DNA from: an uncultured virus (IMG/VR IMGVR_UViG_3300005444_000002)
Taxonomy: Duplodnaviria > Heunggongvirae > Uroviricota > Caudoviricetes
Reading direction: 5' to 3' (one strand)
Virus record (IMG/VR): IMGVR_UViG_3300005444_000002
Length of the DNA stretch: 64,000 bases
The position numbers were made by a program, and so were the translations under genes. Positions 1-54,469 of the stretch are shown piece by piece (the stretch's first letter is position 1; each line of letters begins with the position of its first letter). Under the pieces are notes generated by a model. It was not told where the DNA came from, ran no database searches, and saw only the letters and a program-made list of their open reading frames with translations.

Positions 1-912
1 GTGATCTCCAAACTCTCCCCCTCCATAGGTTGCATCTCCCATTTCGCGATAGTGAATATCCATAACCGCCTGTGGTTCCCCTCCGAGGATGGGGTCTATA
101 CCTACGATGGATCTTTCAAATTCCAAATGGAGGATCTCAAGACCCTCTGGAAGGATGACTTTAAGATCCACAAAGGGGAGTACCTGAAGGCCATTGCTGT
201 AGATGATCGGGAGATGCAGGTTTACAAGCTCCTCATCCCGAGGAACCAGCTTCCCCTCTCCCTCTATTACGTGGGTGCCTATACAGACCTAGAGCCTGAG
301 ACTGGTGGAGGGGCAGGGCAACCCTACTGGACTATAGACCAGAGGAACAGAAGGGATAGCACCATCGGTCTTGCTAGTGATGGGAATTCCAATGAGGTCA
401 TTACCGGGAATTGTGATGGATGGTTGAGGAGGGAGAATGTGGACGGGGATGGAGATGATGATGGGGATACCCTAGGGAAGCACCTGACTATCAGGCATGG
501 TCACAATCTCATGGGGGATCCTATGGGAGATGAGGAGGAGGGGAAGACCTTCCCCAAACTCCACACCTCTGTGGAGAGTGAAGCTACTGCTTGGACCCTC
601 TATGCCCTTGGGGGGGATGAGCAAGCATACCTTCAAGTCAGACCAGACAACACAACCTACTTCTGGAAGGATTCTGTTAGTGAGTCCTACTTCTCCCAAA
701 CCATTGATAACGTACTATATACATATATCCCCAAAACCATCCACTGGCACTATCCCGAACGAGTATCTGGAAGGGGGATTACCGTGGAGATCCAGGCCAA
801 TGCCCCTATCAGGATGAAGTATAGGGGGTATGGAGGGGTGTGGGGTCCTGGTCCTGCCTCCCGACCCCCTGCTACCGCAACGATATTACCGGAAGAAGAG
901 GAAGATCCTTAG
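1..912 (+). CDS. C-terminal part of a tail nozzle/DNA stabilisation-type protein (5' truncated by window edge)
   Basis: Open frame from base 1; beta-rich; lies just upstream of ejection-protein-like genes; likely continues the ORF starting at 63546. Confidence 0.55.
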   Translation: MISKLSPSIGCISHFAIVNIHNRLWFPSEDGVYTYDGSFKFQMEDLKTLWKDDFKIHKGEYLKAIAVDDREMQVYKLLIPRNQLPLSLYYVGAYTDLEPETGGGAGQPYWTIDQRNRRDSTIGLASDGNSNEVITGNCDGWLRRENVDGDGDDDGDTLGKHLTIRHGHNLMGDPMGDEEEGKTFPKLHTSVESEATAWTLYALGGDEQAYLQVRPDNTTYFWKDSVSESYFSQTIDNVLYTYIPKTIHWHYPERVSGRGITVEIQANAPIRMKYRGYGGVWGPGPASRPPATATILPEEEEDP

Positions 913-928
913 GGTGATTGGAGCATAA

Positions 929-1660
929 ATGGCTGCTGGGATCAGAGTTTCGTTTGGGAGTGGGAATGGAGGGGGGTCCTATGTTCCTCCTCAGGGGGTA
1001 GGGACAGGGGGGTTTGGGGGAGGATACCCTTCCACCTCCTCCAACGGTCCTGGTGGGGCTCCCTCCGGAGGGGGATCTTCCTGGATGGGTTCCTCTACCC
1101 CGACCTCTTACCAAGGGGCAGCTTCCACTCCTGCTACTCCAGCTTCCTCCTACACCCCTGGGCCGATGAATATCCAGACCCAACAGAATCCTCAACTTGA
1201 AGCCTTACAGGGGGAATATGCGAAATATAGGAGTGGGTTGGCGGCGGGTTCAGACCAGGATGCGACCAATACCCTGCAGAGGCAGAGGGATCTAACCTCA
1301 GGGATGGCCCAGGAGGCTGGGCAGAATGCTGCTTTCCGCATGGGACCTGATAGTGGGGCTCAGGGGGAGGCGACTAAGAATGTCTGGTCTCAAGGGGCTG
1401 CGAACCTATCCGGGTTGAATGCCAACCTTGCTAGTGATGCTAGGAACAAGCAGCTGAATGCCCTCAATTCTCAGACAGGTGCCGCTCAGGGTGCAGCCCA
1501 GATCGATCAAGCCCAACAGAATTTCGCGTTGAATCAATGGCAAGCCCAGCAGAGTGCCTCCCAAGCTCAAGCCCAGTTGGCTGCCCTCCAACAGCAGAAC
1601 GGTTTCCAAAATCAGATGAGTCTCGCTAACCTTGCCGGTAGTTTTTACTCGGGGTATTAA
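929..1660 (+). CDS. Gly/Gln-rich putative internal virion (ejection/pilot) protein
   Basis: GGAG RBS; G/S-rich N-terminus, Q/A-rich helical C-terminus; position typical of podoviral ejection genes. Confidence 0.55.
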   Translation: MAAGIRVSFGSGNGGGSYVPPQGVGTGGFGGGYPSTSSNGPGGAPSGGGSSWMGSSTPTSYQGAASTPATPASSYTPGPMNIQTQQNPQLEALQGEYAKYRSGLAAGSDQDATNTLQRQRDLTSGMAQEAGQNAAFRMGPDSGAQGEATKNVWSQGAANLSGLNANLASDARNKQLNALNSQTGAAQGAAQIDQAQQNFALNQWQAQQSASQAQAQLAALQQQNGFQNQMSLANLAGSFYSGY

Positions 1661-1662
1661 AG

Positions 1663-2334
1663 TTGAATTATTCCTCCTATGGTCCTAGTGGTATCAATGT
1701 CAACACCCAGGCTCCTGGGAGTAGTTTACCTGGGGGTCCTGGGGTGGATCAGCAGTTTCAGGGGCTCTTGGGGCAGGGGTTGGCCTTTAAGCAGAACATG
1801 GCCAATCGGGGGATGGCTCTCAGAGAAGGGGAAGCAGCTGATGCTTCTAAGATGAGAGCAATGCAGATGCAGGCTCTGGAGAAACAACAGGGATGGGCAC
1901 AACAGGATAGGGATCGGAATACCCCACAGGAGAGACCCATGGAAGACCCCCGAATGGCAGATCTGAATCGCCTGAGACGACAAGATGAGATGGCTGCGAT
2001 TAACGCTAGGCTTCATCCTGCTCCTATGAAGGGTGTGACTGGATTCAACATGATTGGGAATGCTGATGGAGCTGATGTGATGGATACTCAACGTATGGGT
2101 TTCCATCAGCGACAAGCCTACCTTCCCAAAGAATCGGGGATTGTGAGTCCCGGTACAGCTGTTCCGACTGGGTCTATCAGACCTCCATCTTCTGCTCCTA
2201 TCGCAAGTCCTCAGGATCCTTTTCCCAATGGAACAGGAACTCAATTCGCAGCTGGCCAAATGGCCAATGCTCTTGAACGATCCAATTATGAAAGTGCTGC
2301 AAGGTATCAGAAGGAGCAAGGGGGGAAGGGCTAA
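1663..2334 (+). CDS. Putative internal virion protein
   Basis: Tightly packed ORF with M/Q/P-rich low complexity, in the ejection gene cluster. Confidence 0.5.
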   Translation: MNYSSYGPSGINVNTQAPGSSLPGGPGVDQQFQGLLGQGLAFKQNMANRGMALREGEAADASKMRAMQMQALEKQQGWAQQDRDRNTPQERPMEDPRMADLNRLRRQDEMAAINARLHPAPMKGVTGFNMIGNADGADVMDTQRMGFHQRQAYLPKESGIVSPGTAVPTGSIRPPSSAPIASPQDPFPNGTGTQFAAGQMANALERSNYESAARYQKEQGGKG

Positions 2335-3239
2335 TGGGACTTAATGACTTCCTCTATAGTGCAGGGAGACTCCTCAACAACCCTTCTGTAGATGAGGCTG
2401 ATCAGAGATTCAGGTCCAATGCAGCCGATCAGAACCTTCAAGGGTTAAAGCAGGGTATCCAGCAAGCAGCTGGGGCTTTTGGGGCTGGGATTAATCAAGA
2501 GGGCAACCCATCTGGTTTCCATGGTCATGGAGCTAGTGGAGGGTGGGATGCTCCAACTCCTCCCCCTCCTCCGGGGATGGGGATGTATCCTAACGTCCCC
2601 ATTGATTTCACCGCTAATCCATTGGACCAGATTCCGAAGAAGGACCCTACTGCTAATGCTGATGGGGGATCTGGCTATTTGAGCCCTATGCTCCCCCCTG
2701 AGGCTCCGGATAGTGTTCGTCCTCCTCTCCCTCCAGGTGGGTATGTCCACGCAAAGATCAATGGGAAGGATTGGGTAGATTACACCACCACTGCCTCTGA
2801 TCCTAGATTGGCTAACACAGAGCCGTCTAGAGAGATCGTTGCCCCTCCTCCTAGGGATACTGGAGGAGGTCTTTCCATGATGCAGATTTCAGGGAATACT
2901 CCTGGGGCACGAAGGCTAGAGATGGAAAGTAAGTTGCAGGAGCTTGAGCAGAATCAGATGAGTCAGGAGCTAGCCTTCTCCAAACTCACCCCCGACCAGA
3001 TGGCTCAACAGAAGGCAGCCCAGAGACCTATGGATCATCAGATGGCACTTCTCCAGTTGGGGATGCAGACCTTTGGTGATCAGGGGTCTTATGTTCAAAG
3101 AGACCTTGCTCAGAAAGAACATGCCCTTGGTCGTCCATTCAGTCCTCAAGAGAAAGCCACTATGGCAGCCGCCGCCGCCGCTGATTGGGAAGAGAAGATG
3201 GCTCAGTTTGGTGGTGTAGGTCCCAAGAAGCCTATCTAA
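2334..3239 (+). CDS. Putative internal virion protein
   Basis: TAATG coupling at both ends; P/Q-rich. Confidence 0.5.
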   Translation: MGLNDFLYSAGRLLNNPSVDEADQRFRSNAADQNLQGLKQGIQQAAGAFGAGINQEGNPSGFHGHGASGGWDAPTPPPPPGMGMYPNVPIDFTANPLDQIPKKDPTANADGGSGYLSPMLPPEAPDSVRPPLPPGGYVHAKINGKDWVDYTTTASDPRLANTEPSREIVAPPPRDTGGGLSMMQISGNTPGARRLEMESKLQELEQNQMSQELAFSKLTPDQMAQQKAAQRPMDHQMALLQLGMQTFGDQGSYVQRDLAQKEHALGRPFSPQEKATMAAAAAADWEEKMAQFGGVGPKKPI

Positions 3240-6200
3240 TGGGAAAGTCTGACGAATATCTCGCTTCCCTTATGGGGGAGACTCCTCCGGTTGAGGGGGA
3301 GGGTCTCTTCACTCAGGGGAGACATGCTTTAGGAGCCCTGGTAGGATCCGTTGGAGCCCTCGGGGGGCAGGTTGCTGGGCTTGCCTTCCCTGATGCTTAT
3401 CAGAGAGCTTTCCAAGAGCGAGTGGCGAATGCTGGCCCAGAGGATCAGGGACTTATTTCCTCTATCAACAATGCTCCTGGGTTTGGAGCCACCATCGCAG
3501 AGGCTATCTCTCCTGGTACCCCTGAGACTGGTTTAGGGAGAGTTGCGAAGCATGTCGGAGGGATGGCAGGAGACTTCCTCCCCTACATGCTTCTCCCCGG
3601 GGGAGCTGGACTCAAAGGGGGGATGGAACTCCTTAAGGGGGGAGAGATTCTTAAAGGGGCAGGAGCCATCCTCGGCTCAAACCTTCCCGCTGCAGCTGCC
3701 TTTGGACCTGAGTTGGTTCAGGGGATTTATCAGGGTGGAAAGCAGACTGTTGAGGATATAGGCCAGGGGGAGTGGGGGAAGGCTGCGGAGCATGGATCTG
3801 AGGCCCTCCTGATGTCCGGTTTGGGTGCCCTGATGGCCCATGGATCCATCCATGAACTCCAGGCCATGAAGGCCCTGAGAGCCTCCAGGGGGCAGAAGAT
3901 CACCCCCGAGGTGGTAGATCCCCGCCTAGCAGCAACAACCTCCACAGGAGTCCCCACTGATGCTCCCCTAATCCCTGGGGAGGGAGCCAACCTCCAGGGG
4001 AGTGGAGGAACGGATAGCTATTCCCCCAATCCTTTCACTCCTCGTCCACCTGACCCCTCCCTCTCCCCCAGGACGGGATCTGACATAACTCCAGCTCCCT
4101 TTATCCCTCCCCCTGAAGGTGGTTGGGGCCCTGGGCAATCCACCCAGAGCTTCCTCCCTCCTCCTGTGGATATGGTGGTTCCTCCACCTTCCCCTGATCT
4201 CTCTCCAACATCCTCCACGGGGGTAACATCTGCCCCAGTGGATGTGAATCCCAATCCCTGGGGTTATCGTCCCCCTTCAGGGAGTGGAGGGATGTTTACC
4301 CTTCCCGGGAGACCTGAACCCCCTCCCCGACCTGAGGTCATCCTCACTCCTCAACCTCCAGGTACCACTCCCTCCAGGCCAAAGACCCCTGGACAGATCC
4401 AAGGGACTTGGATGGAAGGAGGGGAAAAGATTGATCCTAGCCTCCCCATGGTGGAGCCTGATACTCCTTTACAGATGATAGAGGCGGATCCGGAGACTCT
4501 TCCCTTAATAGAGGCTGATCCCGAAAGTAAGACAAATGGGAAGTACACTCCTGAAATCAGGGATAAGGTCTTGGGAGAAATCACCAATACCGCTTTTAGA
4601 GCCACAGGGGAAGGATCCATTCCTTTCCTAGCTAAGAAGTATGGGATTGCTCAAAACACTCTCCGCAAATGGCACGCTGAGGCAAAGGCGGCTGAGGTAG
4701 GGGAAGCACCCCCAGTTCATGTGGATCAGGCTGATACCCCCGTCTACACTCCCCTTCAGGCACTTCAACAGGAACATATCCAAAGACTCATCCCCGAGGT
4801 AACGGCAGACCTTATCAAGGAGAAGGGGGCAGCATTCGCAAAGAGGCATCCAGATATCATCCAGAAGTTGGCCGAAAAGGAATACTTCATTCGTGCCAAC
4901 CATATGACTGGACTCCCGGGGATTGGTGCTTTCAATGAAGCTGTTGCTCGTCTGAAGTCCGATCCTGCTGACCCCTCTGGCAATCGTAAGCAAGCAGCCT
5001 TCATTTCCGCTGATGGTCGTAAGTTTAAGGACTGGAATGATGAGTTTGGGCATGAGAATGGAGATATGGCTCTTCAAGCCATGGGCCATCTATGGGCAAA
5101 AGCATCAGCAGAGTTTCCCGGAACCCAGATCTTCCAGCCCAGTGGAGATGAATTTAGGGGGATAGCGGAGAATCTAGCTCAAGCTCATCAAATAGGCCAG
5201 AGATTTCAGGAATTGACTAAAGGTGCCACAATTGAAATCAACCACAAAGGAAGTCGTAGACATGTTGGTCTTCCTGAGATAGACTATGGTGCAGCAGAGG
5301 GGGAATTCAAACATGCCGATACAGTCCTCGAAGAAGTTAAAGAGCGCAGACGAACTCCGGGCGGAACGGGTCGGAGGAGAGATGACGGAGGAGGAAAAGG
5401 ATATTATTCGGAACCGAACTCCGGGGACGGAAGTACTCCTGCACATTCCCGGAGAACCTCCGATAGTTCTGATCCCGGGAAAGAAGTTGTCGGAAGTGGA
5501 TCGGACGAAGAACTAGGCGGGAATAAGGGAGGGGGAGATGAAGGAGAAGGAGGATCCTCCCCGGCCAATGGGGGGGTATCGAACGTCAGTAAGCAGCTGG
5601 GGGACAATGTTGGTGAGACCCAAGGCGGTAAAGCCAAGGGAACTGTCTCCGGAGGAAGTGAAGGGGATCAAACTGGCTCTATCTCAACTCCAGGGAATGA
5701 AGGTGACGGACTAACCTCTAGTCCCCCCGGATCTCCTCCGGGGGTCACTCCCCCTACCCTCCCCGGGAATGGAAAGCGAACCTTCTCCCCCACCCGTACC
5801 AGGGATGCCAACTCCAAGATGCCCCCTCATGAGGGGGGGAAGGTTAGGGATCCTGGGAAGATCTCTGCTCAGCAAGCCCTCATAGATAAGCAAACAGCCC
5901 TCCTCTCCCAAGGGGATAACGCCACCAATCCCCTCATCTCAGATGAGGTTGGGAACGCGATTATTGAGCATGGGGAGGCTCCCCCAACCGACCTTCCTGT
6001 TGAAGCCACCCCCATCCTCCCCGAGTCCAAACAACTCCCCCCAGGTTCCCCTACCACTATCGAAGATAGGTTTAAGCAGACAGTGGCCAATACTCCTCCA
6101 GAGGCCCCTCTCTCCTTCCTTCAGAGAGCTGGAAAGGATGCTTTAGACCGTCTCAATACCCAGAAGGGTACTGCCAACGAACTTGGCGCAGCAGCATGGC

Positions 6201-8401
6201 AAGGGGCGAAGACCTTCAAGGATACCGTCATATATCTATCCTCCTTGATCGATAAAGGAGTCAGAGATTTCGCAACTGCCAGTAAGAGGATGATCTCAGA
6301 GTTTGGGGAAGGGATCACCCCTCACCTAAAGAGACTCTGGGCTAGGGCCCAGGAGCATTGGGAGACCTTCAAGGCCAAGAAGGATGAAGCCTTCGGTCCC
6401 TCTGAGGCTGGAGCTGTTGCTCTTGGCCCTCAGGGGTTGAAGGGGATTAAGCCGATACCTCTTCCAAAGAGGGCATCTATCAACGAGACTGCTCCCACCC
6501 ACACCTCTCTCAAAGAAGAAATCCCCAGACTCACCGAACGAGGGACCTCTGCTCTCCTCAAGATCCATAAAGAGGGCTCTCCGGCAGAATACAAAGAAGC
6601 CCTGAAGAAGGCCAAGGATCCTAAGTGGTCGGAGATGTTCTCAGAGGCCTACAAGGCAGGCCTTGTCAGTGGACCCCCTTCCTGGATAGCGAACATCGGA
6701 TCCAATGCCCTTGTCAGGGGGCTCTCAGATTGGGAACATACCTTAGCGGTGGGTTTGGATTCCGCCAGGAGCAAACTAACCGGGTCTAAAAGGGAAAGGT
6801 TCATGGACGAAATCCCCGCCAGGATGGGAGCCTATAAGGCTGCCCTTTCTGGGGAGGATGGGGCTATCTCTAACCTAGTTAGAAATCACTTCGGAGTCAC
6901 CCTCGATCCTCTAGAAAATAAATTCGGCGGAAAGACCCAAGACTACCCCAACGCTATCCCAGGGAAGTTGGGAGAGGGGATCAGGGTTCCTTTCAAGATC
7001 ATGGATGCTTGGGACTCTGTCTTCAAGCATCTGTCTGGGTTTGGGCAGGCCTCTGACCTCGCTATTCGAAAGGCAAAGGGGAAGGGGTTGAAGGGGGATG
7101 CCTTCAAGGCTGAATACAACAGACTCTTTAAAGAAATGAAGGATGTTGCCTCCAACGGGAAGGAGAGCAAGCATTATGGGAGGTATAAGGAGGAGTTTGA
7201 ACAGATCCAGAGTGCCTACCTGGAGGATACCTTCCAATCCGCCCTAGGACCCATTGGTCAGGCGGTGAAGGGATTAGCTGCCTCTCATCCCCTGATTGGA
7301 TCCGCTCTCCTCCCCTTTATCACTGTCCCTGCTAACGTTGCCAAGGCAACCTTGAAGCGAACTCCCCTAGCCTTCCTCCATGGGGAGGTGAGTATCCCCA
7401 ACCTGATCAGGAAGGTGAAGAACGGGACTCTGTCTGGAGCGGATATGGATGCCCTCGCCAAACCCCTAACAGGTTCAATGATTGCCCTAGGGTTTGGTAT
7501 GGCAGCTGCGGAGGGGTTTGTTACTGGTGGGGGGCCAAGCGATCCGAAGTTGAGGGCTGCGTTGGAGGAGAGTGGTTGGCAGCCCTATTCGATCAAGATA
7601 GGGAAGTCTTTCGTAAGCCTGCAACGTTTTGAGCCGATCAGCAGCATCATAGGGATGGCAGCTGACGTAGTTGAGGGGCATCAATCCGGAGCCTTCTCCA
7701 ACCCTCATGACGCAGTTGAGAAGATCGCTGGATCCATTGGGGAGAATCTTACCTCCAAAACCTTCTTGGCTGGTCTAGAAGGTTTCGCCACCGCATGGCA
7801 TGACCCGGTTAGGTATGGGGGGAGATGGATCAGACAGATGGAGGCTTCCTTGGTCCCCAACATCGTGGCCAAGACTGCCCAGGCTATCGATCCAGTGTTT
7901 AGGCAGACCGATACAGCAACCCTGGATCCCATCACCGCTAGGATCCCCTTCGCCTCCAGAACCCTCCCAGCCCAGACCTCCCCCTCTGGGGCTGAAAGGT
8001 TGAGGAAAGGTACCCCCCTGGAAAGGTTAGCTTCCCCCCTCCCGAGGTCTGAAGAGAAGGGGGAAGAGGGAGATCTGGGGAGAGAGTTTGCCTCCATCGG
8101 CTGGGCCCCCTCTCGCCCCAAGAGGAGCATCTACGTGGAGGGGAGGAAGATCACCCTTACCCAAGAGGAGATCTCTCGTCTGGAGAAGGCTCAGGTGGCT
8201 GCCTCCAAGGCTGCGATGGTGGTCCTGAAAGATCCGACGTACCTCAGGCTCCCCAAAAACGAAGAATCGCCTGAGTTTACACCTGGGCGTAAGACTAGAG
8301 CCGACGTACTCGAAAATATTTATCGTCGTCAACGCCGGGTAGTTCTAGCCGATGTAACCCGTTCTGCTGCAAAACGGTCCCGTATTCCCGTAACCCCTTA
8401 A
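3239..8401 (+). CDS. Large multidomain ejection/polyvalent protein with internal HTH and GGDEF-like domains
   Basis: Start reassigned to ATG 3239 (TAATG overlap). C-terminal motif GFVTGGGP...GWQPYSIK...RFEP is typical of large internal virion proteins. HTH at ~4541-4692; GGDEF motifs at ~4890-5350. Confidence 0.75.
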   Translation: MGKSDEYLASLMGETPPVEGEGLFTQGRHALGALVGSVGALGGQVAGLAFPDAYQRAFQERVANAGPEDQGLISSINNAPGFGATIAEAISPGTPETGLGRVAKHVGGMAGDFLPYMLLPGGAGLKGGMELLKGGEILKGAGAILGSNLPAAAAFGPELVQGIYQGGKQTVEDIGQGEWGKAAEHGSEALLMSGLGALMAHGSIHELQAMKALRASRGQKITPEVVDPRLAATTSTGVPTDAPLIPGEGANLQGSGGTDSYSPNPFTPRPPDPSLSPRTGSDITPAPFIPPPEGGWGPGQSTQSFLPPPVDMVVPPPSPDLSPTSSTGVTSAPVDVNPNPWGYRPPSGSGGMFTLPGRPEPPPRPEVILTPQPPGTTPSRPKTPGQIQGTWMEGGEKIDPSLPMVEPDTPLQMIEADPETLPLIEADPESKTNGKYTPEIRDKVLGEITNTAFRATGEGSIPFLAKKYGIAQNTLRKWHAEAKAAEVGEAPPVHVDQADTPVYTPLQALQQEHIQRLIPEVTADLIKEKGAAFAKRHPDIIQKLAEKEYFIRANHMTGLPGIGAFNEAVARLKSDPADPSGNRKQAAFISADGRKFKDWNDEFGHENGDMALQAMGHLWAKASAEFPGTQIFQPSGDEFRGIAENLAQAHQIGQRFQELTKGATIEINHKGSRRHVGLPEIDYGAAEGEFKHADTVLEEVKERRRTPGGTGRRRDDGGGKGYYSEPNSGDGSTPAHSRRTSDSSDPGKEVVGSGSDEELGGNKGGGDEGEGGSSPANGGVSNVSKQLGDNVGETQGGKAKGTVSGGSEGDQTGSISTPGNEGDGLTSSPPGSPPGVTPPTLPGNGKRTFSPTRTRDANSKMPPHEGGKVRDPGKISAQQALIDKQTALLSQGDNATNPLISDEVGNAIIEHGEAPPTDLPVEATPILPESKQLPPGSPTTIEDRFKQTVANTPPEAPLSFLQRAGKDALDRLNTQKGTANELGAAAWQGAKTFKDTVIYLSSLIDKGVRDFATASKRMISEFGEGITPHLKRLWARAQEHWETFKAKKDEAFGPSEAGAVALGPQGLKGIKPIPLPKRASINETAPTHTSLKEEIPRLTERGTSALLKIHKEGSPAEYKEALKKAKDPKWSEMFSEAYKAGLVSGPPSWIANIGSNALVRGLSDWEHTLAVGLDSARSKLTGSKRERFMDEIPARMGAYKAALSGEDGAISNLVRNHFGVTLDPLENKFGGKTQDYPNAIPGKLGEGIRVPFKIMDAWDSVFKHLSGFGQASDLAIRKAKGKGLKGDAFKAEYNRLFKEMKDVASNGKESKHYGRYKEEFEQIQSAYLEDTFQSALGPIGQAVKGLAASHPLIGSALLPFITVPANVAKATLKRTPLAFLHGEVSIPNLIRKVKNGTLSGADMDALAKPLTGSMIALGFGMAAAEGFVTGGGPSDPKLRAALEESGWQPYSIKIGKSFVSLQRFEPISSIIGMAADVVEGHQSGAFSNPHDAVEKIAGSIGENLTSKTFLAGLEGFATAWHDPVRYGGRWIRQMEASLVPNIVAKTAQAIDPVFRQTDTATLDPITARIPFASRTLPAQTSPSGAERLRKGTPLERLASPLPRSEEKGEEGDLGREFASIGWAPSRPKRSIYVEGRKITLTQEEISRLEKAQVAASKAAMVVLKDPTYLRLPKNEESPEFTPGRKTRADVLENIYRRQRRVVLADVTRSAAKRSRIPVTP

Positions 8402-29412: not shown

Positions 29413-30630
29413 CTAGTTCGGTAACCCCATGAGGGCCGGGATGTTGGGGAAATTAGGCCCCTCACTGTTCCCTGTTTTCTTCCCATTTAGCAACGCTTTC
29501 GGACGGGTCCGCTGAGAGTGGGTGTTTGTGGCACCGGGGGCTTCAGCTGGGAGCCACCCACCATAGGTTTCTGTTGTCATGGCCAGGGTGGCGTGACCCA
29601 GTTGCTGCTGGACCCACTTGGGAGGCGTCCCCCGAGCAATGTGCTGAGAGCCGAAGGAGTGTCGCAGGCTGTGGAGGTTGAAGTGGTCAGGGAGGCCTGC
29701 CTTCTTCAGGAGCCAATGCAACTTGAAGAGGAGGTGCTTTCGCACTTGCTCCTCATCCGCCTCCTCCATGGTGGAGGGAAGCTCAGGGAAGAAGAACCAA
29801 GCGTTGGGGGAGAGGTCAGAGGATCTCTCTCGATAACCCTCCAAGGCCTCCCAAAGAAGAGGGGAGACTTCTACTTTCCGGGTAGAGCTGGCAGTCTTGA
29901 GATGCCGGGTCTGCCCCTCATGGTTGTGGATAATCAGATGGCTCTCCGTGACATCCTTTACCTTTAAGTGGAGGAGTTCTCCGATACGGAGGCCAGCCCA
30001 TCCCAGAGTGGCGTAGATGGGGAAGAGGGAGGGGTGATGTTCAAGAGAGGTTTCAAAGAAGAGAGTCATCTGGGGTTCATCCATGGCCTTGACAACCTGG
30101 ATCTCACTCTTTCCTCCCCAAAGAGTTTTTCCCAGTTTGGCAGTGGGGCTCTTGACAATGATCCCTGAATCTACAGCCCAGCCGAAAAAGAGGGAGAGCT
30201 TCTGGACGAGAACCTTCTTGGAGGCCTTGGAAAGGGTATCTCTGGAGTAGAGCAACTCTCGGAGAATTCCTAAGTTGATGTCCACCATCTTCTTCTTTCC
30301 CAGCATCGGGAGAATGTGAAGGCGGATGTTGCTCTCCACGTTCCTGATGGTCCCTGCTGAACGATCAGAGCCTTTGGAGGAGTAGAGCTTCAGGAACGTT
30401 TTGGCATATTCCTCAACAGTGATGAAAGGATCATAGTTGGAGGATTGGGGTCCCTCTCTCTCCATTAGGATGAACTTCGCATCCGCCTGTTGAGCCTCCA
30501 GTTCAGTGGAGTAAATCCTCTTGAACCGAAGGGGTTTGCCTGCCACATCCTTCTTGGTAGGATGAAGACCGTCCAATTGCCAGACAGTCTTCCCTAACCT
30601 CTTGATTTCCGTGATCTTAGCTTTTCTCAT
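29413..30630 (-). CDS. int: Tyrosine integrase
   Basis: GLRIGEL, LKT, HSLRHSFG, LGH, TYG catalytic residues; N-terminal arm/core-binding region. Confidence 0.93.
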   Translation of the reverse strand: MRKAKITEIKRLGKTVWQLDGLHPTKKDVAGKPLRFKRIYSTELEAQQADAKFILMEREGPQSSNYDPFITVEEYAKTFLKLYSSKGSDRSAGTIRNVESNIRLHILPMLGKKKMVDINLGILRELLYSRDTLSKASKKVLVQKLSLFFGWAVDSGIIVKSPTAKLGKTLWGGKSEIQVVKAMDEPQMTLFFETSLEHHPSLFPIYATLGWAGLRIGELLHLKVKDVTESHLIIHNHEGQTRHLKTASSTRKVEVSPLLWEALEGYRERSSDLSPNAWFFFPELPSTMEEADEEQVRKHLLFKLHWLLKKAGLPDHFNLHSLRHSFGSQHIARGTPPKWVQQQLGHATLAMTTETYGGWLPAEAPGATNTHSQRTRPKALLNGKKTGNSEGPNFPNIPALMGLPN

Positions 30631-46712: not shown

Positions 46713-48353
46713 ATGGCCCCAATTTACGCTGATATACGAGAGACCATCAGGAAACTGGAACGGGGAGAACTCTCGATTCCACAGATGTTATCTCTCAAAG
46801 ATCAGATATTACCCTTATTAAAGGCAGGAAAGAAGCCACTTCCAGATAATCCAGCCGATTTTGCCATGTTCATGACTGAGGATGAGCATCCCGACCATAA
46901 ATGGGAGGTTGCACCACATTTAAGGCTGATTTCCGACTATCTGACCGAACTAATCGCTGGAAAACGGCAGCGATTGATGATTTTCACCCCACCTAGGCAC
47001 GGAAAGTCGGAACTGGTATCCAAATGGCTTCCAGTTTGGTTTTTGGCGAAGAATCCCACTAAAAAAATCATCCTAGCCTCATACGAGCAGGATTTCAGCA
47101 ATATCTATGGTCGTGCTGTTAGGGATATTATCCAAAACAATCAGGATAAGCTCTCCATTACCCTTGATTCAGGCTCTACTGCAGCCCACCGATGGTCTTT
47201 GACCTCCGGTGGAGGAATGATGTGTGCGGGAGCTGGGGGACCTATCACAGGTAAGGGTGCAGACCTCCTGATTGTGGACGATCCGGTGAAAAATGACGAA
47301 GAGGCGTCCTCGGAAGTCTATAGAGAGAAGCTCTTTTCGTGGTGGCAGAGCACGGCTTTTACTCGTCTATCCCCTACTGGTGTTGTCGTCATTATCATGA
47401 CCAGATGGAATGAGGATGACGTGTCGGGAAGGTTGGAGAATCTATCCACCTCAGGTGAAGGACTTCATTGGGACATTCTCAGACTTCCTGCTTTAGCAGA
47501 GGATGATGATCCCCTAGGGAGGAAGTATGGGGAGGCCCTCTGGCCCACCCGCTTCTCCAGAGAATGGCTCCTAGACAAGAAGAGGGGTATTAGTCCTTAC
47601 CTCTTCTCAGCCCTCTACCAACAACATCCCACCCCAGAAGAGGGAAACGCTGTACGCCGTTCCTGGTGGGGAAGGTATCAAGTAGCTCCTGATGTTGAAT
47701 CGATGGACGTGGTTATACAGAGTTGGGATCTGGCCTTCAAAGATATGTCCAAGAATGACTTCACCGTAGGTCAGGTGTGGGGGAGGAAGGGAGCTTCCCT
47801 CTATCTCCTAGACCAAATCAGAGGCCACCTCAATGCGGAGGAATGTGTCTTGGCTATCAGAGCCACCACTGCCAAATGGCCTAGAGCCTTAGCCAAGCTC
47901 ATTGAGGATAAGGCCAATGGACCGGCTGTCATCCAGATGCTATCCAAGAAGGTGGCAGGAGTAATCCCGATCAACCCCAAAGCCTCCAAGGATGCTCGCC
48001 TAGCCGCTGTGATCCCCTTCATCGCAGCCGGGAATGTCCACCTCCCCGAGGGGGAGATAGCTCCTTGGGTGGGGGATTTCATAGAGGAGTGTGCTGCCTT
48101 CCCCAAGGGGGCTAATGATGACTGTGTTGACGCCATGACCCAAGCACTCAACTACCTCAACCCCCAAGCCTCCCTCCATATCGAGAAAATGCACAGAGAA
48201 GCCCTCAACACTCCCGACAAAGCCACCCCTATCGATCTTCACACAGCCTCCGTCCATAAATCCCTTCGGGAGGCAGTGAAGAAAACCACCAAAAAGATCA
48301 ACACCACCAAAGGGCAGGCATTCCGTCAAAGGGCCCATACGGGTCATTGGTAG
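46713..48353 (+). CDS. terL: Terminase large subunit
   Basis: PPRHGKS Walker A, IVDDP Walker B, MTRW, YQQ.P, SWDLA, IEDKANG, NDDCVDA. Confidence 0.95.
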   Translation: MAPIYADIRETIRKLERGELSIPQMLSLKDQILPLLKAGKKPLPDNPADFAMFMTEDEHPDHKWEVAPHLRLISDYLTELIAGKRQRLMIFTPPRHGKSELVSKWLPVWFLAKNPTKKIILASYEQDFSNIYGRAVRDIIQNNQDKLSITLDSGSTAAHRWSLTSGGGMMCAGAGGPITGKGADLLIVDDPVKNDEEASSEVYREKLFSWWQSTAFTRLSPTGVVVIIMTRWNEDDVSGRLENLSTSGEGLHWDILRLPALAEDDDPLGRKYGEALWPTRFSREWLLDKKRGISPYLFSALYQQHPTPEEGNAVRRSWWGRYQVAPDVESMDVVIQSWDLAFKDMSKNDFTVGQVWGRKGASLYLLDQIRGHLNAEECVLAIRATTAKWPRALAKLIEDKANGPAVIQMLSKKVAGVIPINPKASKDARLAAVIPFIAAGNVHLPEGEIAPWVGDFIEECAAFPKGANDDCVDAMTQALNYLNPQASLHIEKMHREALNTPDKATPIDLHTASVHKSLREAVKKTTKKINTTKGQAFRQRAHTGHW

Positions 48354-48378
48354 ACTTACTTAGGGGGGTTAAGGGTAA

Positions 48379-48729
48379 ATGTTCAATAAGAAGCTAATCC
48401 AATCTCTGGAAAAGGAAATCACTCGGCTCTCTGCCCAAAGTAGTGATCTCCTTGACAGGTTGGAGAGGCAATTTACTGTAGCTGCCCAGGAAAGGGAGAA
48501 GCTTTTACAGAAGATCATTGCCCTAGGATCCCCCGCTTCCTTCTCCCTCATGAACCCCAAAGTCTCCTCGGAATCGAAACTCTCCCCTTTCCCCTCCGGA
48601 CAATCAAGGATGGCCCCAGGCCTCCCCTCGCAGGTTCGCCTCTCTCCACCCCTCCCCTTCTCCTCCTCAGCTGCGAACCTGAGGAAGGAGATCCTTCCCA
48701 TACCTCCTCTCCCTACCGAGGGGTTTTAA
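48379..48729 (+). CDS. Hypothetical coiled-coil protein
   Basis: ORF filling the gap between terL and portal. Confidence 0.55.
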   Translation: MFNKKLIQSLEKEITRLSAQSSDLLDRLERQFTVAAQEREKLLQKIIALGSPASFSLMNPKVSSESKLSPFPSGQSRMAPGLPSQVRLSPPLPFSSSAANLRKEILPIPPLPTEGF

Positions 48730-51480
48730 TTGGGAATGGTTGATCCGAAAGGGACTAGAGTCCCTGACTTGGATGCTGACGACTCTACCCTTATTGATTT
48801 TAAGAATAAGTATTTCTCCAAGTACAACATCTGCCGTTTAGCTGAGATGCAGAGGATGTCCTTGGCTCTCCACTACCTCTATGGGAGGCAGTGGATTGAG
48901 CTAGACCAAACCCTTGTGCAAAGCGGATCTGGGTATGCCTTCAAGTCTATTGATGGGGTTGATCCCCAAATGCCCAAACCGGTTATCAACATCTGTCTCC
49001 CAGCGGTGAAGGTCGAGAACAGCAGCCTCTCTAAGAGGCAGATCATCCCCAACATCCTCCCCACCGCTAAGGACCCTAGGGTAGAAACAGCTGCGAAGGA
49101 AGCGAAGGACATCCTCCTCCATACCCTCAAGAAGAATCTGTGGCCCGAGAAGAGGGATGACCACACCACCAATACCGTTGCTACTGGTATTGGAATCATG
49201 CGTTCCTTCTGGGATGAGCCCCACACAGAGACTACTCCCACAGCCTCCCCCTTCGCAGCCAAGTGCCCCAATGAGGGATGTGGAACCATGGTGAGCAACA
49301 CCCAGGTCCCCACAGACCTCCTCATGCAGACGGCTCCTAATGCCCCTGCGACGGAGATTGAAGGGCTGGGGTTGTCGGAGTTGGAAGGCTGTCCTACTTG
49401 TGAGGAACCCACCCCTCTCCAACCCTTTGAGTTGGATGAAGAGGGAGCCAAGGGGGCGGACTTCTTTGGTCGCCCTATGGGGGAGGAGGTTGCTAAGGGG
49501 CATCCTGCTCTGGAGGTGGTGAGTCCCTTTGACTTCTACCCTTTCAACCATGGAGTGGATCAATCCCCTTCAGATTTGAGAGTGGTAGGTCAAGCCACCG
49601 TGAGGGATCTGGATTGGGTCTATGACAGATATCCTGAGGAGGCTGAGGATCTTCGTCCAGAGGATCCCCAAGAACTCCTTTCCAGACATCCCACGATGGG
49701 GTATGGGGGGATCTTCAACTCCTACTCCTCCTCTGTTGATAGCGGGATTTACGACTCCCATGTAACCATCTATGACATCGTTGCAGAGAAGTCCTACAGA
49801 TTCCCCCAGGGTCGTCTGATCCGTATCGCTGGTCAGGGCCCTGAGGGGGGGAAGGTTCTCTTCTCTGGTCCTCTCTATAGGGAGGTTGCTGGGGTGGAGG
49901 TTGCTACTGTGAAGTATGCGGTGGCGGTCCATACCCCCCAACATCGGCTCATCTGGGGGAGATCCGTTGTGGATGATCTGGTGTCCATCCAGAATCAGGT
50001 CAATGGGATCAAGTCCCAAATCATCTCAGCCAGAGAGACCCTAGGTTCCCCTAACATCCTCGCCACTGAGAACATGGACCTCTCAGAACCCTCCTGGTTT
50101 GATGCCTACTCAGGGAAGATCATGAGGTATAGCATTGATCCTCTCAATCCTCTTGCCAAACCAGAAGTCTTCGGCGGTGTCCTCTTCCCTGGTGGGGGTG
50201 AGCTTGAGCTGGACAAGCTTTTGGAACTCGCTAAGTACATTGCTGGCCCCCAGGATATCGAGCAGGGGGAAGCCCCAAGGAACATATCTACAACTTCCGG
50301 CTTGCAACTGTTGGGAGAGGCAGCCGAGAGAAGGAGGGCTGCTACTGAGAGAGCCCTCACTTTCTGCTATGAGAAGATTTGGTCCCACCAGTTGGAACTC
50401 CTCTGGGTCCTCCGTACCGAGTCAGACACCTACGAAGTAGAGGGAGAGGATGGCTCTTGGGAGGAGAAGCAGTTCTCCAGGACGAACATCCTAGGTCAAA
50501 CAAAGGTAACCATAGAGAAGCAGGCTGAGATTGACAGATCCCTCTACCAAAGAGAAGCAGCCCGAGAAGCCCAAGCCGATATGCTTTACATCGTGGATAA
50601 CGCTATTACTCGGAAGAGACTTCTGGAGCTACGTGGCTTACCTACTGATGTGAATCAGGATCTGAACTATCAAGTTGACCTCGCTAAGAGGCAATGGATC
50701 GATTATGTAGATGATGGAAAGATCCCCACTATCGATCCCTCGATTGATGACTTCCGGATCAGGTTTCAAGCCCTCGCCACCATGCTCCTCTCGGATGAAG
50801 GTCAGAGGTTGCAGGAGGAGATGGGTTGGCCTAAGACCCTTAAACAGATCGCAGGTTGGGAGCAAGAGTTAGCCAAAGCAGAGATGATGGACGATCAAGT
50901 CAGGGGGATGTATAGCGCAATCGCTCCCCCTGAGGAGAACAACAAACTCTACGCTCAGGCAATGGTTTCCTACAGTGCCCAGCAAGAAGGGATGGAGGCT
51001 CAGGGGCAACAGATGGCCTCCCAAGGAGTCGTTGGTCCCCCTCCTGCTCCCCTCCCTCCTCCCCCACCCCCGATATTCCTCCCAGCGGACAAAGCAGACC
51101 GGGTGTATGGGGTCTGGAAGCAGATGATTAATGTGGCTTTGATGAAGGTCCAGCAAGGCCCCCCTGGAGCCCCCCCTCAGGGTGTTCCCGAAATGGGTAC
51201 GACCGTTCCCAATGTGGGAATGGACCCAGGTCAGGGCCCAGGTCTCGCTCCCCTCCAAGACCCTGGTGCCCCTCAGGATGCCTTCCTAAAGTTCAGATCG
51301 GTTGTGGAGGCATACAAGCTCCTCGCTGAAAAGAAGGATCTGATGGGTATGATGGGAGCCCCCCAAGCCCCCTCCCCAGGTACTCCAGGGGGGAATCCGG
51401 GGACGGGAGGTGCTCTTCCAGGGATAGCCCCCGCTGCCCCAGTCAACCCCCCTAACCCCCAACCGCCTCAAATCACCTAA
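48730..51480 (+). CDS. Portal protein with Zn-ribbon-like insertion and Pro-rich tail
   Basis: Position after terL; VSPFDFY, WGRS.V..L..IQ..VN patterns. Confidence 0.8.
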   Translation: MGMVDPKGTRVPDLDADDSTLIDFKNKYFSKYNICRLAEMQRMSLALHYLYGRQWIELDQTLVQSGSGYAFKSIDGVDPQMPKPVINICLPAVKVENSSLSKRQIIPNILPTAKDPRVETAAKEAKDILLHTLKKNLWPEKRDDHTTNTVATGIGIMRSFWDEPHTETTPTASPFAAKCPNEGCGTMVSNTQVPTDLLMQTAPNAPATEIEGLGLSELEGCPTCEEPTPLQPFELDEEGAKGADFFGRPMGEEVAKGHPALEVVSPFDFYPFNHGVDQSPSDLRVVGQATVRDLDWVYDRYPEEAEDLRPEDPQELLSRHPTMGYGGIFNSYSSSVDSGIYDSHVTIYDIVAEKSYRFPQGRLIRIAGQGPEGGKVLFSGPLYREVAGVEVATVKYAVAVHTPQHRLIWGRSVVDDLVSIQNQVNGIKSQIISARETLGSPNILATENMDLSEPSWFDAYSGKIMRYSIDPLNPLAKPEVFGGVLFPGGGELELDKLLELAKYIAGPQDIEQGEAPRNISTTSGLQLLGEAAERRRAATERALTFCYEKIWSHQLELLWVLRTESDTYEVEGEDGSWEEKQFSRTNILGQTKVTIEKQAEIDRSLYQREAAREAQADMLYIVDNAITRKRLLELRGLPTDVNQDLNYQVDLAKRQWIDYVDDGKIPTIDPSIDDFRIRFQALATMLLSDEGQRLQEEMGWPKTLKQIAGWEQELAKAEMMDDQVRGMYSAIAPPEENNKLYAQAMVSYSAQQEGMEAQGQQMASQGVVGPPPAPLPPPPPPIFLPADKADRVYGVWKQMINVALMKVQQGPPGAPPQGVPEMGTTVPNVGMDPGQGPGLAPLQDPGAPQDAFLKFRSVVEAYKLLAEKKDLMGMMGAPQAPSPGTPGGNPGTGGALPGIAPAAPVNPPNPQPPQIT

Positions 51481-52045
51481 GAGGTATTGTGACCCGTTTC
51501 CTCAACTTCCTCCGTAGGATCCTCCCGATCCTCAGCCGTCTTCTCCCTCCTGAACGGAAGGCTTAGGGGTGTTCTCCTTCCTCATTCATCTCATCTTCCT
51601 CTTCGCCACATTCCTCATCATTTACTAATCGTTACACGTTGTTATTTAACTGCCCCTTTATGGGGAAGAAGGAGTCCCCCTAATGGGAGAAGAGAGATGG
51701 TGGGATCAGGCTACCCGGAGCTGGAAGACGAGGGGTACTAAGTCTGATAGTGAACTAGCTGATGCTAAGGCGAAGGAACAATTCCAGGACACCTCCACCC
51801 TCATTAAAGCTGCTGAGGATAACAAGGCGAAGTCGGCCACCTCCACCCCTGTAGAGGACAGTCCCCTCGTTGCAGCCTCAAAGAAAGCAGCCAAGGCCCG
51901 GAAGGCTGCCCAGATATCCGCTCTCAGCCAGTAACCCCCTATCCTTATATATAGGTCGTAGAGAAGTGCCCCTTTAGAGGGGGATGTTACTCTTAACTTA
52001 TCCAGCCTCAGGGACTACCCCTGAGCGGAAAGGTCCAACCACAAT

Positions 52046-53152
52046 ATGTCAGACGAAGCAAATGATGAGGGTGATGTTGTCCTTCATCTAGACGATGATC
52101 CCACCCCCGAGTCTACCCCGGAGGAGGGACCTCAGGATGATGTAGCTGATTCTGAGGATGAAGACCCTGCTACTCCAACCGAAGAAGAGCCTGAGGAACC
52201 GGTTAAGGCTACCCAGGGTCGTAGCCCCAAGTTCCAGAAACTTCTTGCGAAGTATGGTGGGGATGAAGATAAGCTAGCTGACGCGATCTTTGAGCAATAC
52301 AACTCCGCATCAACCCTTCATGGGAAGATCCGGGAGTTGGAAGCAAGGATCAACACCCCTAGCAAACCCAAACCCCCCGCTGAAGACCATCCAGATATAA
52401 AGGCTCTCAAGAGCGATATCGCCTCTCAGGAACAGAGGTTCAAGACCGCTGAACTAAGGCAGCAACAGATTCTCCAGGTTATCTCAACCGTTAAGGAAGA
52501 GGTGGCTGCCAAAAAAGGAGAACTGAGGAGAGCGGATCCAGATGAGAAGCATTCCATCCAGAGAGAGATCTCTGACCTGGAATCTCGTATGGCTCTCCTC
52601 TCCACCGATTGGTATTCCCAAGAGGATCGTAAAGGGGATATTCAATATCGTCATAAGTCCCTAGAACGGGAACTGAAAGCAGCGGAAAGAGCCGTCCAAT
52701 CTGAGCTGGCACAGAAGTCCAATCAGGATGCCCAGAATCAAGTCACCCAGGAGGAGATTGCTAACACCTTCAAAGGTATCGCAACCTCCAGAGCCAAAGC
52801 AGCTGGGATAGAGGATCCCGAGGTCTTAGAGTATTTTCACAACACAGCTAGAGCGGAAGCCATTGCGTATCTCCGCACTCCAGGGGCACAGAGCCTAGAC
52901 TTTGACAAGTTCATAAGTCAAAGGCTTGTTCCCTTCCTGAAGTTCGTAGGTATGGGCAAGAAGACTACCTTCACTAAAGCCAGTACCGAAAAACTTCAGG
53001 CAGCTGGGAAACCAACCCAACCCACTAAGATCCCCCCTCGCCCCTCTTCCTCCCCTGTGATCAAGATTGATAGTAAGGGTGTCCCACAATTCCCCAAAGG
53101 ACCCTTAACGGTGGAGCAAGCAAAGGCCTTCACCAAGTCCATGTTGGGGTAA
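52046..53152 (+). CDS. Scaffolding protein
   Basis: Acidic N-terminus, long coiled coil, directly upstream of the capsid gene. Confidence 0.7.
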   Translation: MSDEANDEGDVVLHLDDDPTPESTPEEGPQDDVADSEDEDPATPTEEEPEEPVKATQGRSPKFQKLLAKYGGDEDKLADAIFEQYNSASTLHGKIRELEARINTPSKPKPPAEDHPDIKALKSDIASQEQRFKTAELRQQQILQVISTVKEEVAAKKGELRRADPDEKHSIQREISDLESRMALLSTDWYSQEDRKGDIQYRHKSLERELKAAERAVQSELAQKSNQDAQNQVTQEEIANTFKGIATSRAKAAGIEDPEVLEYFHNTARAEAIAYLRTPGAQSLDFDKFISQRLVPFLKFVGMGKKTTFTKASTEKLQAAGKPTQPTKIPPRPSSSPVIKIDSKGVPQFPKGPLTVEQAKAFTKSMLG

Positions 53153-53167
53153 TCGGAGTAGCACATT

Positions 53168-54469
53168 ATGTCTGCTGGTATCTTTACCTCTATCACGACC
53201 TCGCTCAAGAATACTTACACAAATAAAATCGTTGAGCCGATGGTTAATGAATCGGCCCCTTTCCGTAAGTGGCTTTCCAAGAATACCCCTGCTGGTGGTT
53301 TCGTTAGTGGTGGTGCAGGTATTCTGAAGTTTGCTGGAAACTTGGCCCCTGAACAGAACGTTGGTCAGCTCCTGGATAGCGGAACCCTCCCCCCCACGAA
53401 GGATCGTTCTGATGTCCAGTTCACCCTCACCCCGACCATCTTTGCAGCTGCAGTTGAACTGGGATGGTTGACCCGGAGTGCTGCATCCTCGGATAAGGGT
53501 GCATTCAATGGTGGAGAACTCCGGAGGAGAACCAATGATGGTATCTCCGCTCTGGGGAAGTTTATCGAATCCACTTATGTTGGTACGCATGGTACTGGTC
53601 GTAGGGCCAGGGTCTCCACTGACGGTACCTCTACCTTCGTTGCAGCCCTCCCCGAGGGAACTCGGTTGCTTCGTAGGAATATGTACATCACCGCTCGAAC
53701 GACTGATGGTGGAGCCACTGTTCGTGACACTGTTGACCTCAGGTTGATCACGGCTATCAATCACTCTACCCGTACCGTCACCTATGATGGTGCAGATCAG
53801 ACCTTGGTTGCTGGGGATCATATCCATGTGGTCAATGAGGCAGCTCAGTCCTTCGTTACCAATCCCTTCGCTAACGGTCTTCGTGGTCTTGTCGATGACG
53901 CCACCTATGCTGCCTCCATCCATGGTCTTGCTCGGGTTACCTACCCCGAGTTGAATGCCACTGTTTCCTCCAATGGTGGAACCCTCCGATCCCTCTCCGA
54001 AGGGATGATGATCCAGCTTGTTCATGAAATCCTGGCCCGTACCGGAAAGCCCATCACCGCCATCTGGGCTCCTGAAGGGCAGATCCAGAAGTATGTGGAA
54101 TTCGTTGCTCCTGATCGTAGGAATGTGAGGACTGGTAAGTCGGATACGGGGAATATGGCCACTGGGTATAGGGAAGAGGACTTGCTCTTCTATGCTCCGG
54201 GGATTGCTGTTCCGATCAAGACTTCCTTTGACATGGTCGCAAGGGAGATGTACTTCCTCAATGAGGATTCCTTCTTCCACTATGTTGCGAAAGAACTTGG
54301 TTGGCAGGAGGGGGCAGGTAAGGACCTTCTGCAACTCATCCCTGCGACTGCCGGCTATAAGGCAGGTTATTTAGGCTACATTACGGCTTTGGAAAATATA
54401 GGCAACGATTTTCCGATGTCTAATGGAGTAATGAGAGACTTGAAGGATCCAAGCGTGGGTGACAGCTAA
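53168..54469 (+). CDS. Major capsid protein
   Basis: 433 aa; LK..Y N-terminus, GL.GL.D and HGL.R..YP motifs; synteny. Confidence 0.8.
   Translation: MSAGIFTSITTSLKNTYTNKIVEPMVNESAPFRKWLSKNTPAGGFVSGGAGILKFAGNLAPEQNVGQLLDSGTLPPTKDRSDVQFTLTPTIFAAAVELGWLTRSAASSDKGAFNGGELRRRTNDGISALGKFIESTYVGTHGTGRRARVSTDGTSTFVAALPEGTRLLRRNMYITARTTDGGATVRDTVDLRLITAINHSTRTVTYDGADQTLVAGDHIHVVNEAAQSFVTNPFANGLRGLVDDATYAASIHGLARVTYPELNATVSSNGGTLRSLSEGMMIQLVHEILARTGKPITAIWAPEGQIQKYVEFVAPDRRNVRTGKSDTGNMATGYREEDLLFYAPGIAVPIKTSFDMVAREMYFLNEDSFFHYVAKELGWQEGAGKDLLQLIPATAGYKAGYLGYITALENIGNDFPMSNGVMRDLKDPSVGDS

Follow-up and report, generated by a model that had tools for sequence, protein, structure and literature searches.

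A GGDEF domain in a gp16-like internal virion protein of an uncultured phage: a candidate virion-delivered c-di-GMP synthase

Introduction

The closest described counterparts of the element studied here are GGDEF domains within phage polyvalent proteins. These were catalogued as 'not very widespread' by Iyer 2017 (PMC5512222), with Acetonema longum WP_004096050.1 as an example, and were proposed to interfere with host nucleotide responses. We describe such a domain in P0002, a protein encoded in 64,000 nucleotides of DNA from an uncultured virus of the Caudoviricetes (IMG/VR IMGVR_UViG_3300005444_000002). This whole stretch, termed the window throughout, represents most of a phage genome; a contig of 64,517 bases is the recorded source of the protein. 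As in Iyer 2017, the domain lies within a large late-gene protein that is predicted to be packaged and injected; the difference is that in P0002 one recognisable enzyme, accompanied by a helix-turn-helix (HTH)-like domain, is mounted on a gp16-like scaffold.

The first-pass annotation of the window had asked whether the fusion was already catalogued. The fusion type is present in Iyer 2017 and is common in uncultured phages. The idea of an injected GGDEF domain dates from that year, as a computational prediction; the architecture is known and common, and a single copy of it is of moderate interest. New here are predictions at the level of residues: the family traits, SGDEF and a His or Gln at the position of PleD R366, the loss of the cross-dimer Arg in the P0002 lineage, and a candidate product-binding peptide. 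The excerpts of Iyer 2017 give neither an analysis of individual residues nor a signature of the subfamily nor arginine motifs, and its supplementary lists may already contain the subfamily defined here.

GGDEF domains also occur in phages as stand-alone proteins. In its excerpts, a 2023 review mentions that of YuA as the sole phage case (PMC10333796). Lysogens of LK3 form more biofilm, an effect for which the GGDEF gene was not isolated as the cause (PMC8471281). Cyclic di-GMP (c-di-GMP) affects phage infection elsewhere: the YIP peptides of PB1 activate YfiN, and N4 needs high c-di-GMP (PMC8085984). As for the scaffold, T7 gp16 is hexameric after ejection and has a cytoplasmic DNA-binding middle part between two membrane regions (PMC8954989). 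Searches largely confined to the open-access literature turned up no phage GGDEF domain that had been tested by experiment.

We assign a probability of roughly 50% to the reading that P0002 is a virion-delivered c-di-GMP synthase of modest rate, dimerised by its scaffold and carrying a product-binding tail of its own. Should the domain be active, the phage would possess an enzyme that alters a host lifestyle signal ahead of any phage gene expression.

Identity and fold of the domain

Residues 554–705 of P0002, encoded at 4898..5353 on the plus strand, are a true GGDEF domain, as the first-pass annotation had observed. The four motifs occur in canonical order in a single open frame: NHMTGLPG from 4898, ADGRKFK...GD at approximately 5009–5074, SGDEF at 5141–5155 and ADTVLEEVK at 5315–5341. 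The Pfam search proposed in that annotation aligned residues 556–705 with positions 6–159 of the 161 in PF00990 at 43.8 bits (E 2.9e-11), above the curated cut-off of 23.8. A profile of 70 cellular GGDEF domains, which leans towards the query because its members had been picked as matches to the query domain, scored the real domain at 93.6 bits and the reversed sequence at -1.5; with the same profile, the best score of a shuffled sequence was 7.6 (849 reported of 1000 shuffles). In addition, contigs of runs X3 and X4, which are listed as rhizosphere metagenomes, are not flagged as potential sources of the window and may stem from one sampling campaign, repeat 4551–5443 and 4779–5214, respectively, with zero differing letters. 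Based on these controls and the identical contigs, a chance match or a frame artefact was rejected.

The AlphaFold model of the domain, built from a 10-sequence alignment, had a predicted local distance difference test (pLDDT) score of 88.9 and showed the GGDEF topology of the class III nucleotidyl-cyclase fold. All matches listed by Foldseek in the PDB were GGDEF domains. In VIA-align, 32 GGDEF entries ranked first (top Z 18.7, root-mean-square deviation 3.2, 155 residues aligned) and adenylyl cyclases followed at Z of 10.7 or less. According to this ranking, neither an adenylyl cyclase nor a Cas10-type palm is the nearest fold.

A GGDEF subfamily of phages

Relatives of the domain were collected in several ways. 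The best 150 of 346 phmmer matches were examined and nine phage-type proteins were picked by hand, several of which carry LPD38, LPD22, LPD1 or InPase. An IMG/VR search with an alignment of five phage-type domains yielded 136 relatives among 221 pattern matches, and 79 loci were kept; loci L002–L053 were labelled giant-protein members by rank and open reading frame (ORF) length. Residues were counted in an alignment of 62 phage giant-protein domains, 6 solo domains, 10 other viral domains, 70 randomly drawn cellular domains and two members of the P0002 lineage, after 18 domains (3 phage, 15 cellular) that did not match the anchor pattern had been dropped. The sets are non-independent samples, and the cellular set was chosen by similarity to the query. 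The second lineage member, P0003, is known as a protein only.

On sequence grounds, the domain is a member of a broad phage subfamily, defined here, that is common in uncultured phages. A quick tree of 101 rows placed the P0002/P0003 lineage within a 43-row phage branch (SH-aLRT 88), nearest to P0020 and P0050; P0175 and P0071 fell outside that branch. The phage profile gave the window's domain the higher score (95.7 versus 87.3 bits). Recent capture of a cellular diguanylate cyclase was rejected given this tree placement and a best cellular identity of 37%. Family matches in GTDB lay on contigs of metagenome-assembled genomes from many phyla; for 15 of 86 ORFs, the phage profile gave the better score. 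Polyvalent-type Pfam domains were found in 10 of 18 hand-picked giant-protein ORFs.

Two features pointed out in the first-pass annotation proved to be the norm of this subfamily. The first signature position is Ser in 49 of 62 phage domains; the IMG/VR pattern required [YN][HR]x[SG]GDEF or DxxLKW, and counts of all these motifs are inflated by it. The canonical inhibitory site (I-site), an RxxD five residues before the signature, is indeed missing from the window's domain, and it was found in neither lineage member, in 1 of 62 phage domains (61 lack it) and in 29 of 70 cellular ones. A long beta-hairpin is a further trait of the giant-protein members. The subfamily signature, a His before xSGDEF and an upstream [ED]RR, is itself absent from P0002, which has Gln in place of the His and no upstream [ED]RR.

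Among cultured phages, stand-alone members are known from Yuavirus and Bordetella phages (66 records). The solo GGDEF proteins of Yuavirus and Vojvodinavirus (Churro_042, MP1412, Bordetella CN1, LK3) belong to the same subfamily by profile (111 versus 84 bits), and that of Churro has SGDEF as in the window's domain. Unlike P0002, these solo proteins are 156 residues long, lie in a non-structural gene block, keep both guanine-reading arginines and lack the hairpin and the arginine peptide. As cultured members, they are tractable stand-ins for the window's protein. Stand-alone members of 156–187 residues that lack the hairpin were also seen at L161:2983-3453 (Pseudomonas phage Churro), L054–L058 and L060.

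Other members differ in arrangement. In P0008 and P0036, two family domains stand in tandem in each chain and might together build an active site within one molecule. In P0175, P0020 and P0050, the domain is preceded by an H-P-D-type linker, as in the window's protein, but two to three upstream [ED]RR repeats are kept. The middle and C-terminal domains of P0002 recur in P0175 as well, yet the GGDEF domain of P0175 branched apart in the quick tree.

Active-site residues

Residue roles were taken from PleD (PMC7288161, PMC7186502), DgcR (PMC8041772), and GacA and PadC (PMC6456294). The metal ligands (PleD D327 and E370) and the xG(D/E)E loop are kept as D592, D637 and E638. In the segment at 5012..5065 (+), the metal ligand D592, K597 and the guanine ligands N600 and D609 (PleD D327, K332, N335 and D344) are all present, with R594 in place of a conserved Asp. 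The phosphate-binding positions K701 and R705 (PleD K442 and R446; 5339..5353, +) are kept; in P0003, R705 is Gly and R704 is shared. D592, N600, D609, G636-D637-E638 and K701 are present in both P0002 and P0003. P0002 retains each of the eight core residues tested; the full set is likewise present in 50 of 62 phage and 60 of 70 cellular domains.

By contrast, the conserved guanine-contacting arginines of diguanylate cyclases are missing. The signature loop, Q633-P-SGDEF (5135..5155, +), has Gln at the position of PleD R366, which is His in 56 of 62 phage domains and Arg in 70 of 70 cellular ones. The position of the cross-dimer guanine-reading Arg (DgcR R147, PadC R537), which holds Arg or Lys in most domains (47 of 62 from phages, 62 of 70 cellular), is occupied by I562 (4922..4924, +), an equivalence drawn from structural ranges taking the first 22 residues as ungapped. 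Q633, I562, G561 and R594 are the changes specific to the lineage. The first-pass annotation had listed three departures, N to G, D to R and R to Q; all are present, but the second (R594) does not fall on the metal ligand, which is D592, and the reading that it removes this ligand was rejected. The list had also missed the R-to-I change at 562, which matters more. Its statement that SGDEF variants can be active stands: ECA3270 is an active natural SGDEF enzyme (cited in PMC3974145) and MbaA is active in vivo (PMC8079147).

Overall, the domain shares with canonical diguanylate cyclases (PleD, DgcR, WspR, PadC) the fold, at Z up to 18.7, and the metal, guanine and phosphate ligands. It differs from them in having no sensor domain and no I-site, NxMT for DxLT at the wide turn, a longer beta-hairpin and neither guanine-reading Arg. 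The changes seen in the lineage could reflect either a slower enzyme or a drift toward a binder.

The residues also bear on the product. The cross-dimer Arg favours guanine; Hypr GGDEF enzymes, which lack it, make mostly cyclic GMP–AMP (cGAMP), and restoring it skews their product to c-di-GMP (PMC6456294). The window's domain resembles the Hypr enzyme GacA in its non-Arg residue at this position and the Asp at the motif centre. An active enzyme with relaxed base choice or incomplete cyclisation, making 3'3'-cGAMP, c-di-AMP or linear pppGpG and aimed at host nucleotide signalling or immunity, would accord with I562 and with the replacement of R366 across the whole family. We regard it as quite unlikely, given that D609 is retained and that the arginine motifs next to the domain resemble a c-di-GMP-binding type. 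Specificity for GTP stems from an Asp at the D344 position, and the substitution S348D turns GacA into a pure diguanylate cyclase (PMC6456294). Hypr enzymes have Ser or Thr at this position, and membership of the Hypr group was rejected because of D609. D609 and N600 would thus keep GTP selectivity, so that the product of the window's domain would be c-di-GMP.

Within the family, the D344 position is Thr in 3 of 62 phage domains, namely both P0036 domains and one further member, and Asn in 4. Thr together with the xGDEF loop is the Hypr pattern, and these members, rather than the window's protein, are therefore the stronger candidates for cGAMP synthesis.

An arginine-rich tail

The domain is followed by an arginine-rich tail (5369..5464, +) with two RRxxD motifs, at residues 712 and 738, that is a candidate c-di-GMP-binding peptide. 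These are the only two RRxxD motifs in P0002. Both recur in P0003, where the first reads DRR and the surrounding stretch is 54% identical. In a test run after the pattern had been seen, 45-residue windows of 117 GGDEF-free scaffold relatives contained two RRxxD motifs in 1 of 3978 cases and [DE]RR followed by RRxxD in 0 of 3978. In the wider family, [ED]RR motifs lie instead upstream of the domain: 48 of 62 members have one within 60 residues (at an identical distance in 34 cases), compared with 54 of 2110 windows from other parts of the same proteins.

CleD binds dimeric c-di-GMP through DRR-x11-(R/K)RxxD (PMC7382256, Table 1). The tail recalls CleD in being short and unstructured and in pairing a DRR-like motif with RRxxD, and P0003 has the exact DRR and a Tyr before RRxxD; the likeness, by sequence alone, is qualified by a spacing of 24 residues instead of 11 and by GRR for DRR in P0002. 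The motifs point to c-di-GMP as the relevant ligand and argue against reading the missing I-site as feedback insensitivity. With two RRxxD motifs directly after the domain, the 'feedback-insensitive' synthase of the first-pass annotation is not established.

The sequence thus sets this lineage apart by the loss of both guanine-reading arginines and by the C-terminal RRxxD tail. A more speculative idea, which we think unlikely, is that the lineage represents a converted cyclase, which either makes another nucleotide (cGAMP or linear pppGpG) or acts as an injected c-di-GMP trap by means of the tail. More widely, the arginine peptide found next to most phage GGDEF domains would be an unrecognised Cle-like c-di-GMP-binding switch that may precede or follow the domain.

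Architecture of P0002

P0002 is a large, predicted internal-virion (polyvalent) protein of 1720 residues. Its gene (3239..8401, +) starts at an ATG that overlaps the preceding stop codon (TAATG); the ORF finder extended the frame upstream to a TTG at 3185. The C-terminal domain (6587..8398, +), which includes two moderately hydrophobic segments, resembles gp16 or internal virion protein D (phrog_6651, E 8.7e-25). Its 600 residues matched 44 cultured-phage records (best E 3e-23; 22–31% identity); among the 40 of these listed, many are annotated as internal virion protein D or gp16, in cultured podoviruses. This homology bears out the earlier placement of the domain within a large ejection-type protein. 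P0002 further resembles T7 gp16 as the last gene product of an ejection-like block; it differs in that no transglycosylase was detected and in that approximately 1100 N-terminal and middle residues are unrelated. No solved gp16 matched the scaffold profile A4 by sequence (the best match, at E 0.063, was a terminase small subunit), and the gp16 label of P-SSP7 was assigned by synteny and size. Packaging and ejection of P0002 are accordingly predictions from homology and gene order.

The rest of the protein is modular. A Gly/Ala-rich, moderately hydrophobic segment near the N-terminus (residues 30–48; 3326..3382, +; weak Kyte–Doolittle peak of 1.49) is, by analogy with T7 gp16, a possible membrane-inserting part. 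A flexible tether follows (residues 225–428; 3911..4522, +; 24% Pro; 63% identical to P0003). Just 5' of the GGDEF domain is a small HTH-like domain (residues 429–490; 4523..4708, +; 79% identical in P0003), which matched HTH_Tnp_1 at E 3.8e-4 and 21.1 bits, below the 24.1 cut-off, formed three helices in a single-sequence model and was present in 2 of 120 scaffold relatives. A helical linker without the family's upstream [ED]RR (residues 491–553; 4709..4897, +) leads into the wide turn of the GGDEF domain; modelled at low confidence, it is a candidate dimerisation helix, and a single-sequence fold of HTH, linker and GGDEF together was uninformative (pLDDT 46). Beyond the arginine-rich tail are a low-complexity Gly/Ser/Pro tether (residues 746–950; 5474..6088, +; 48% identical to P0003) and a small, unnamed middle domain (residues 966–1060; 6134..6418, +), which is common to four other of the 120 scaffold relatives and matched phrog_10089 weakly and no Pfam family.

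Scaffold relatives numbered 158, of which 120 were listed and counted. A survey of this slot among homologues, as the first-pass annotation had advised, found GGDEF in three of the 120 (P0002, P0003 and P0175), ART-PolyVal in six, and InPase, RadC/JAB and others once each (PF18760, PF18823 and PF04002 are ART-PolyVal, InPase and RadC/JAB). Because relatives of the scaffold carry varying domains, GGDEF is an exchangeable cargo. P0002 thus combines unrelated parts that vary among relatives (HTH-like, GGDEF and gp16-like), as polyvalent proteins do. It had no Pfam LPD match; the nearest named Atlas cluster was LPD38 (score 0.96). Query P0001 had no confirmed relatives among 2 IMG/VR stretches or 592 JGI metagenome stretches and matched three weak, unannotated records among deposited phages; a search with the C-terminal domain returned L001 only, which is identical to the window.

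The G+C content at third codon positions was 0.41 in the GGDEF segment (4859–5362) versus 0.61 in the C-terminal domain, in line with a module acquired separately.

Late gene products are made in the cytoplasm ahead of packaging. The domain might do its work at a late stage in the producer cell, or be clipped off before packaging, and never reach the cytoplasm of the next host. A trypsin-like protease encoded in the structural block, the position of the Yuavirus stand-alone members among non-structural genes and the weakness of the hydrophobic segments on which the proposed topology depends are all consistent with such a role. By contrast, the scaffold is internal-virion-like and family members recur in giant proteins with polyvalent-type domains (10 of 18 scanned). 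We judge a role confined to the producer cell the least probable of the alternatives.

Proposed mechanism

The best explanation of the sequence data is that a gp16-type ejection protein would serve as the carrier of a diguanylate cyclase. A few copies of P0002 would be packed in the head and ejected along with the DNA. By analogy with T7 gp16, the protein would end in or across the inner membrane with its middle facing the cytoplasm, such that HTH, GGDEF and tail, held between the weakly hydrophobic segments on flexible tethers, are exposed there. An oligomeric ring, the tethers and the linker helix might together pair two GGDEF halves, replacing the sensor domain; with dimerisation driven by the ring, no host signal would be needed. 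A reduced rate is probable because the two guanine-reading arginines are gone. Assuming three dimers, 0.1 turnovers per second, ten minutes and a one-femtolitre cell, a rough estimate of c-di-GMP is approximately 0.3 micromolar, which suggests that few copies could matter. The RRxxD tail may bind dimeric c-di-GMP as a stand-in feedback or product-holding site. Finally, an early pulse of c-di-GMP might render the host sessile or change its surface receptors, which would suit a temperate phage; this is the least supported step.

The conservation of the domain can be read in two ways. Its identity between P0002 and P0003 is 70%, well above that of the tethers (48–63%), which we counted for the synthase, and below that of the HTH, middle and C-terminal parts (78–81%), which weighs against it. 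So do the following observations. P0002 and P0003 are the only proteins without Arg, Lys or His at both guanine-reading positions (0 of 62 phage and 0 of 70 cellular domains). G561 replaces Asn, R594 replaces Asp and the family's C-terminal G.R..RG is kept only partly; P0003 adds K597H, D601K and F639L, the last of which turns its signature into SGDEL. The lineage stem is long (1.01, quick tree), and TIGR00254 scored 30.8 bits, under its cut-off of 37.4. Ser at the first signature position inactivated VCA0965 (PMC3974145). In the tail, the spacing departs from that of CleD, P0003 does not share the ERR at 702 and the RRxxD test was post hoc. As to the genome, no PilZ, EAL or HD-GYP gene was found in 102 ORFs or segments scanned, and no Rfam match in the window links it to c-di-GMP. 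The basis of the P-SSP7 label counts on the same side.

Much of this would suit a catalytically weak or dead derivative. It might simply be decaying, or might bind GTP or c-di-GMP through the preserved fold and the RRxxD tail and thereby serve as sponge, sensor or dominant-negative partner for the cyclases of the host. The lost arginines, the P0003 substitutions, the long stem, the identity under that of the structural parts and the low TIGR00254 score all point that way, and a CleD-like tail is itself a sequestering motif. Against it, both proteins retain D592, N600, D609, G636, D637, E638 and K701, which a pure binder would not need, and the domain is clearly better conserved than the tethers. 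We hold such a derivative to be the least unlikely of the alternatives and retain the c-di-GMP synthase as the favoured reading.

Genome context

P0002 is preceded by three tightly coupled Gly/Gln-rich genes (929..3239, +) encoding proteins of 243, 223 and 301 residues. By position and composition, these are probably smaller ejection proteins; they had no Pfam or PHROG match. A terminase large subunit, a probable portal (weak match) and a podovirus-type major capsid protein mark the start of the late module (46713..54469, +). The capsid match to NF033394 (capsid_maj_Podo) had an E of 3.7e-17, yet lay below its cut-off. P0002 is encoded in a phage late module of the portal–terminase packaging type, as polyvalent proteins are. 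No sheath or tape-measure match turned up among the ORFs scanned, and the window contains no tRNA. A tyrosine integrase is encoded at 29413..30630 (-), and the phage is therefore probably temperate.

The structural block also encodes the trypsin-like protease, followed by an M15-type endolysin (61274–62211, +); the protease could process virion proteins. Three calcineurin-like metallophosphoesterases (10802–11581, +; 12761–13315, -; 36681–37316, -) might have nucleotide signals as substrates. DNA polymerase A is encoded in two overlapping ORFs (16883–18514 and 15990–16901, both -), each matching PF00476, which reflects either a natural split or a frameshift. An AAA_25 helicase-like ORF (25676–26647, +) lies inside the mostly minus-strand replication block. 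At least six HNH or endonuclease-VII-like genes were found, at 8458, 10221, 11849, 23514–24002, 44417 and 46260, several of them within the late module. Finally, the frames at 63549–64000 (+) and 1–912 (+) are open at the ends of the window and are probably one tail gene that spans approximately 500 missing bases of a circular genome.

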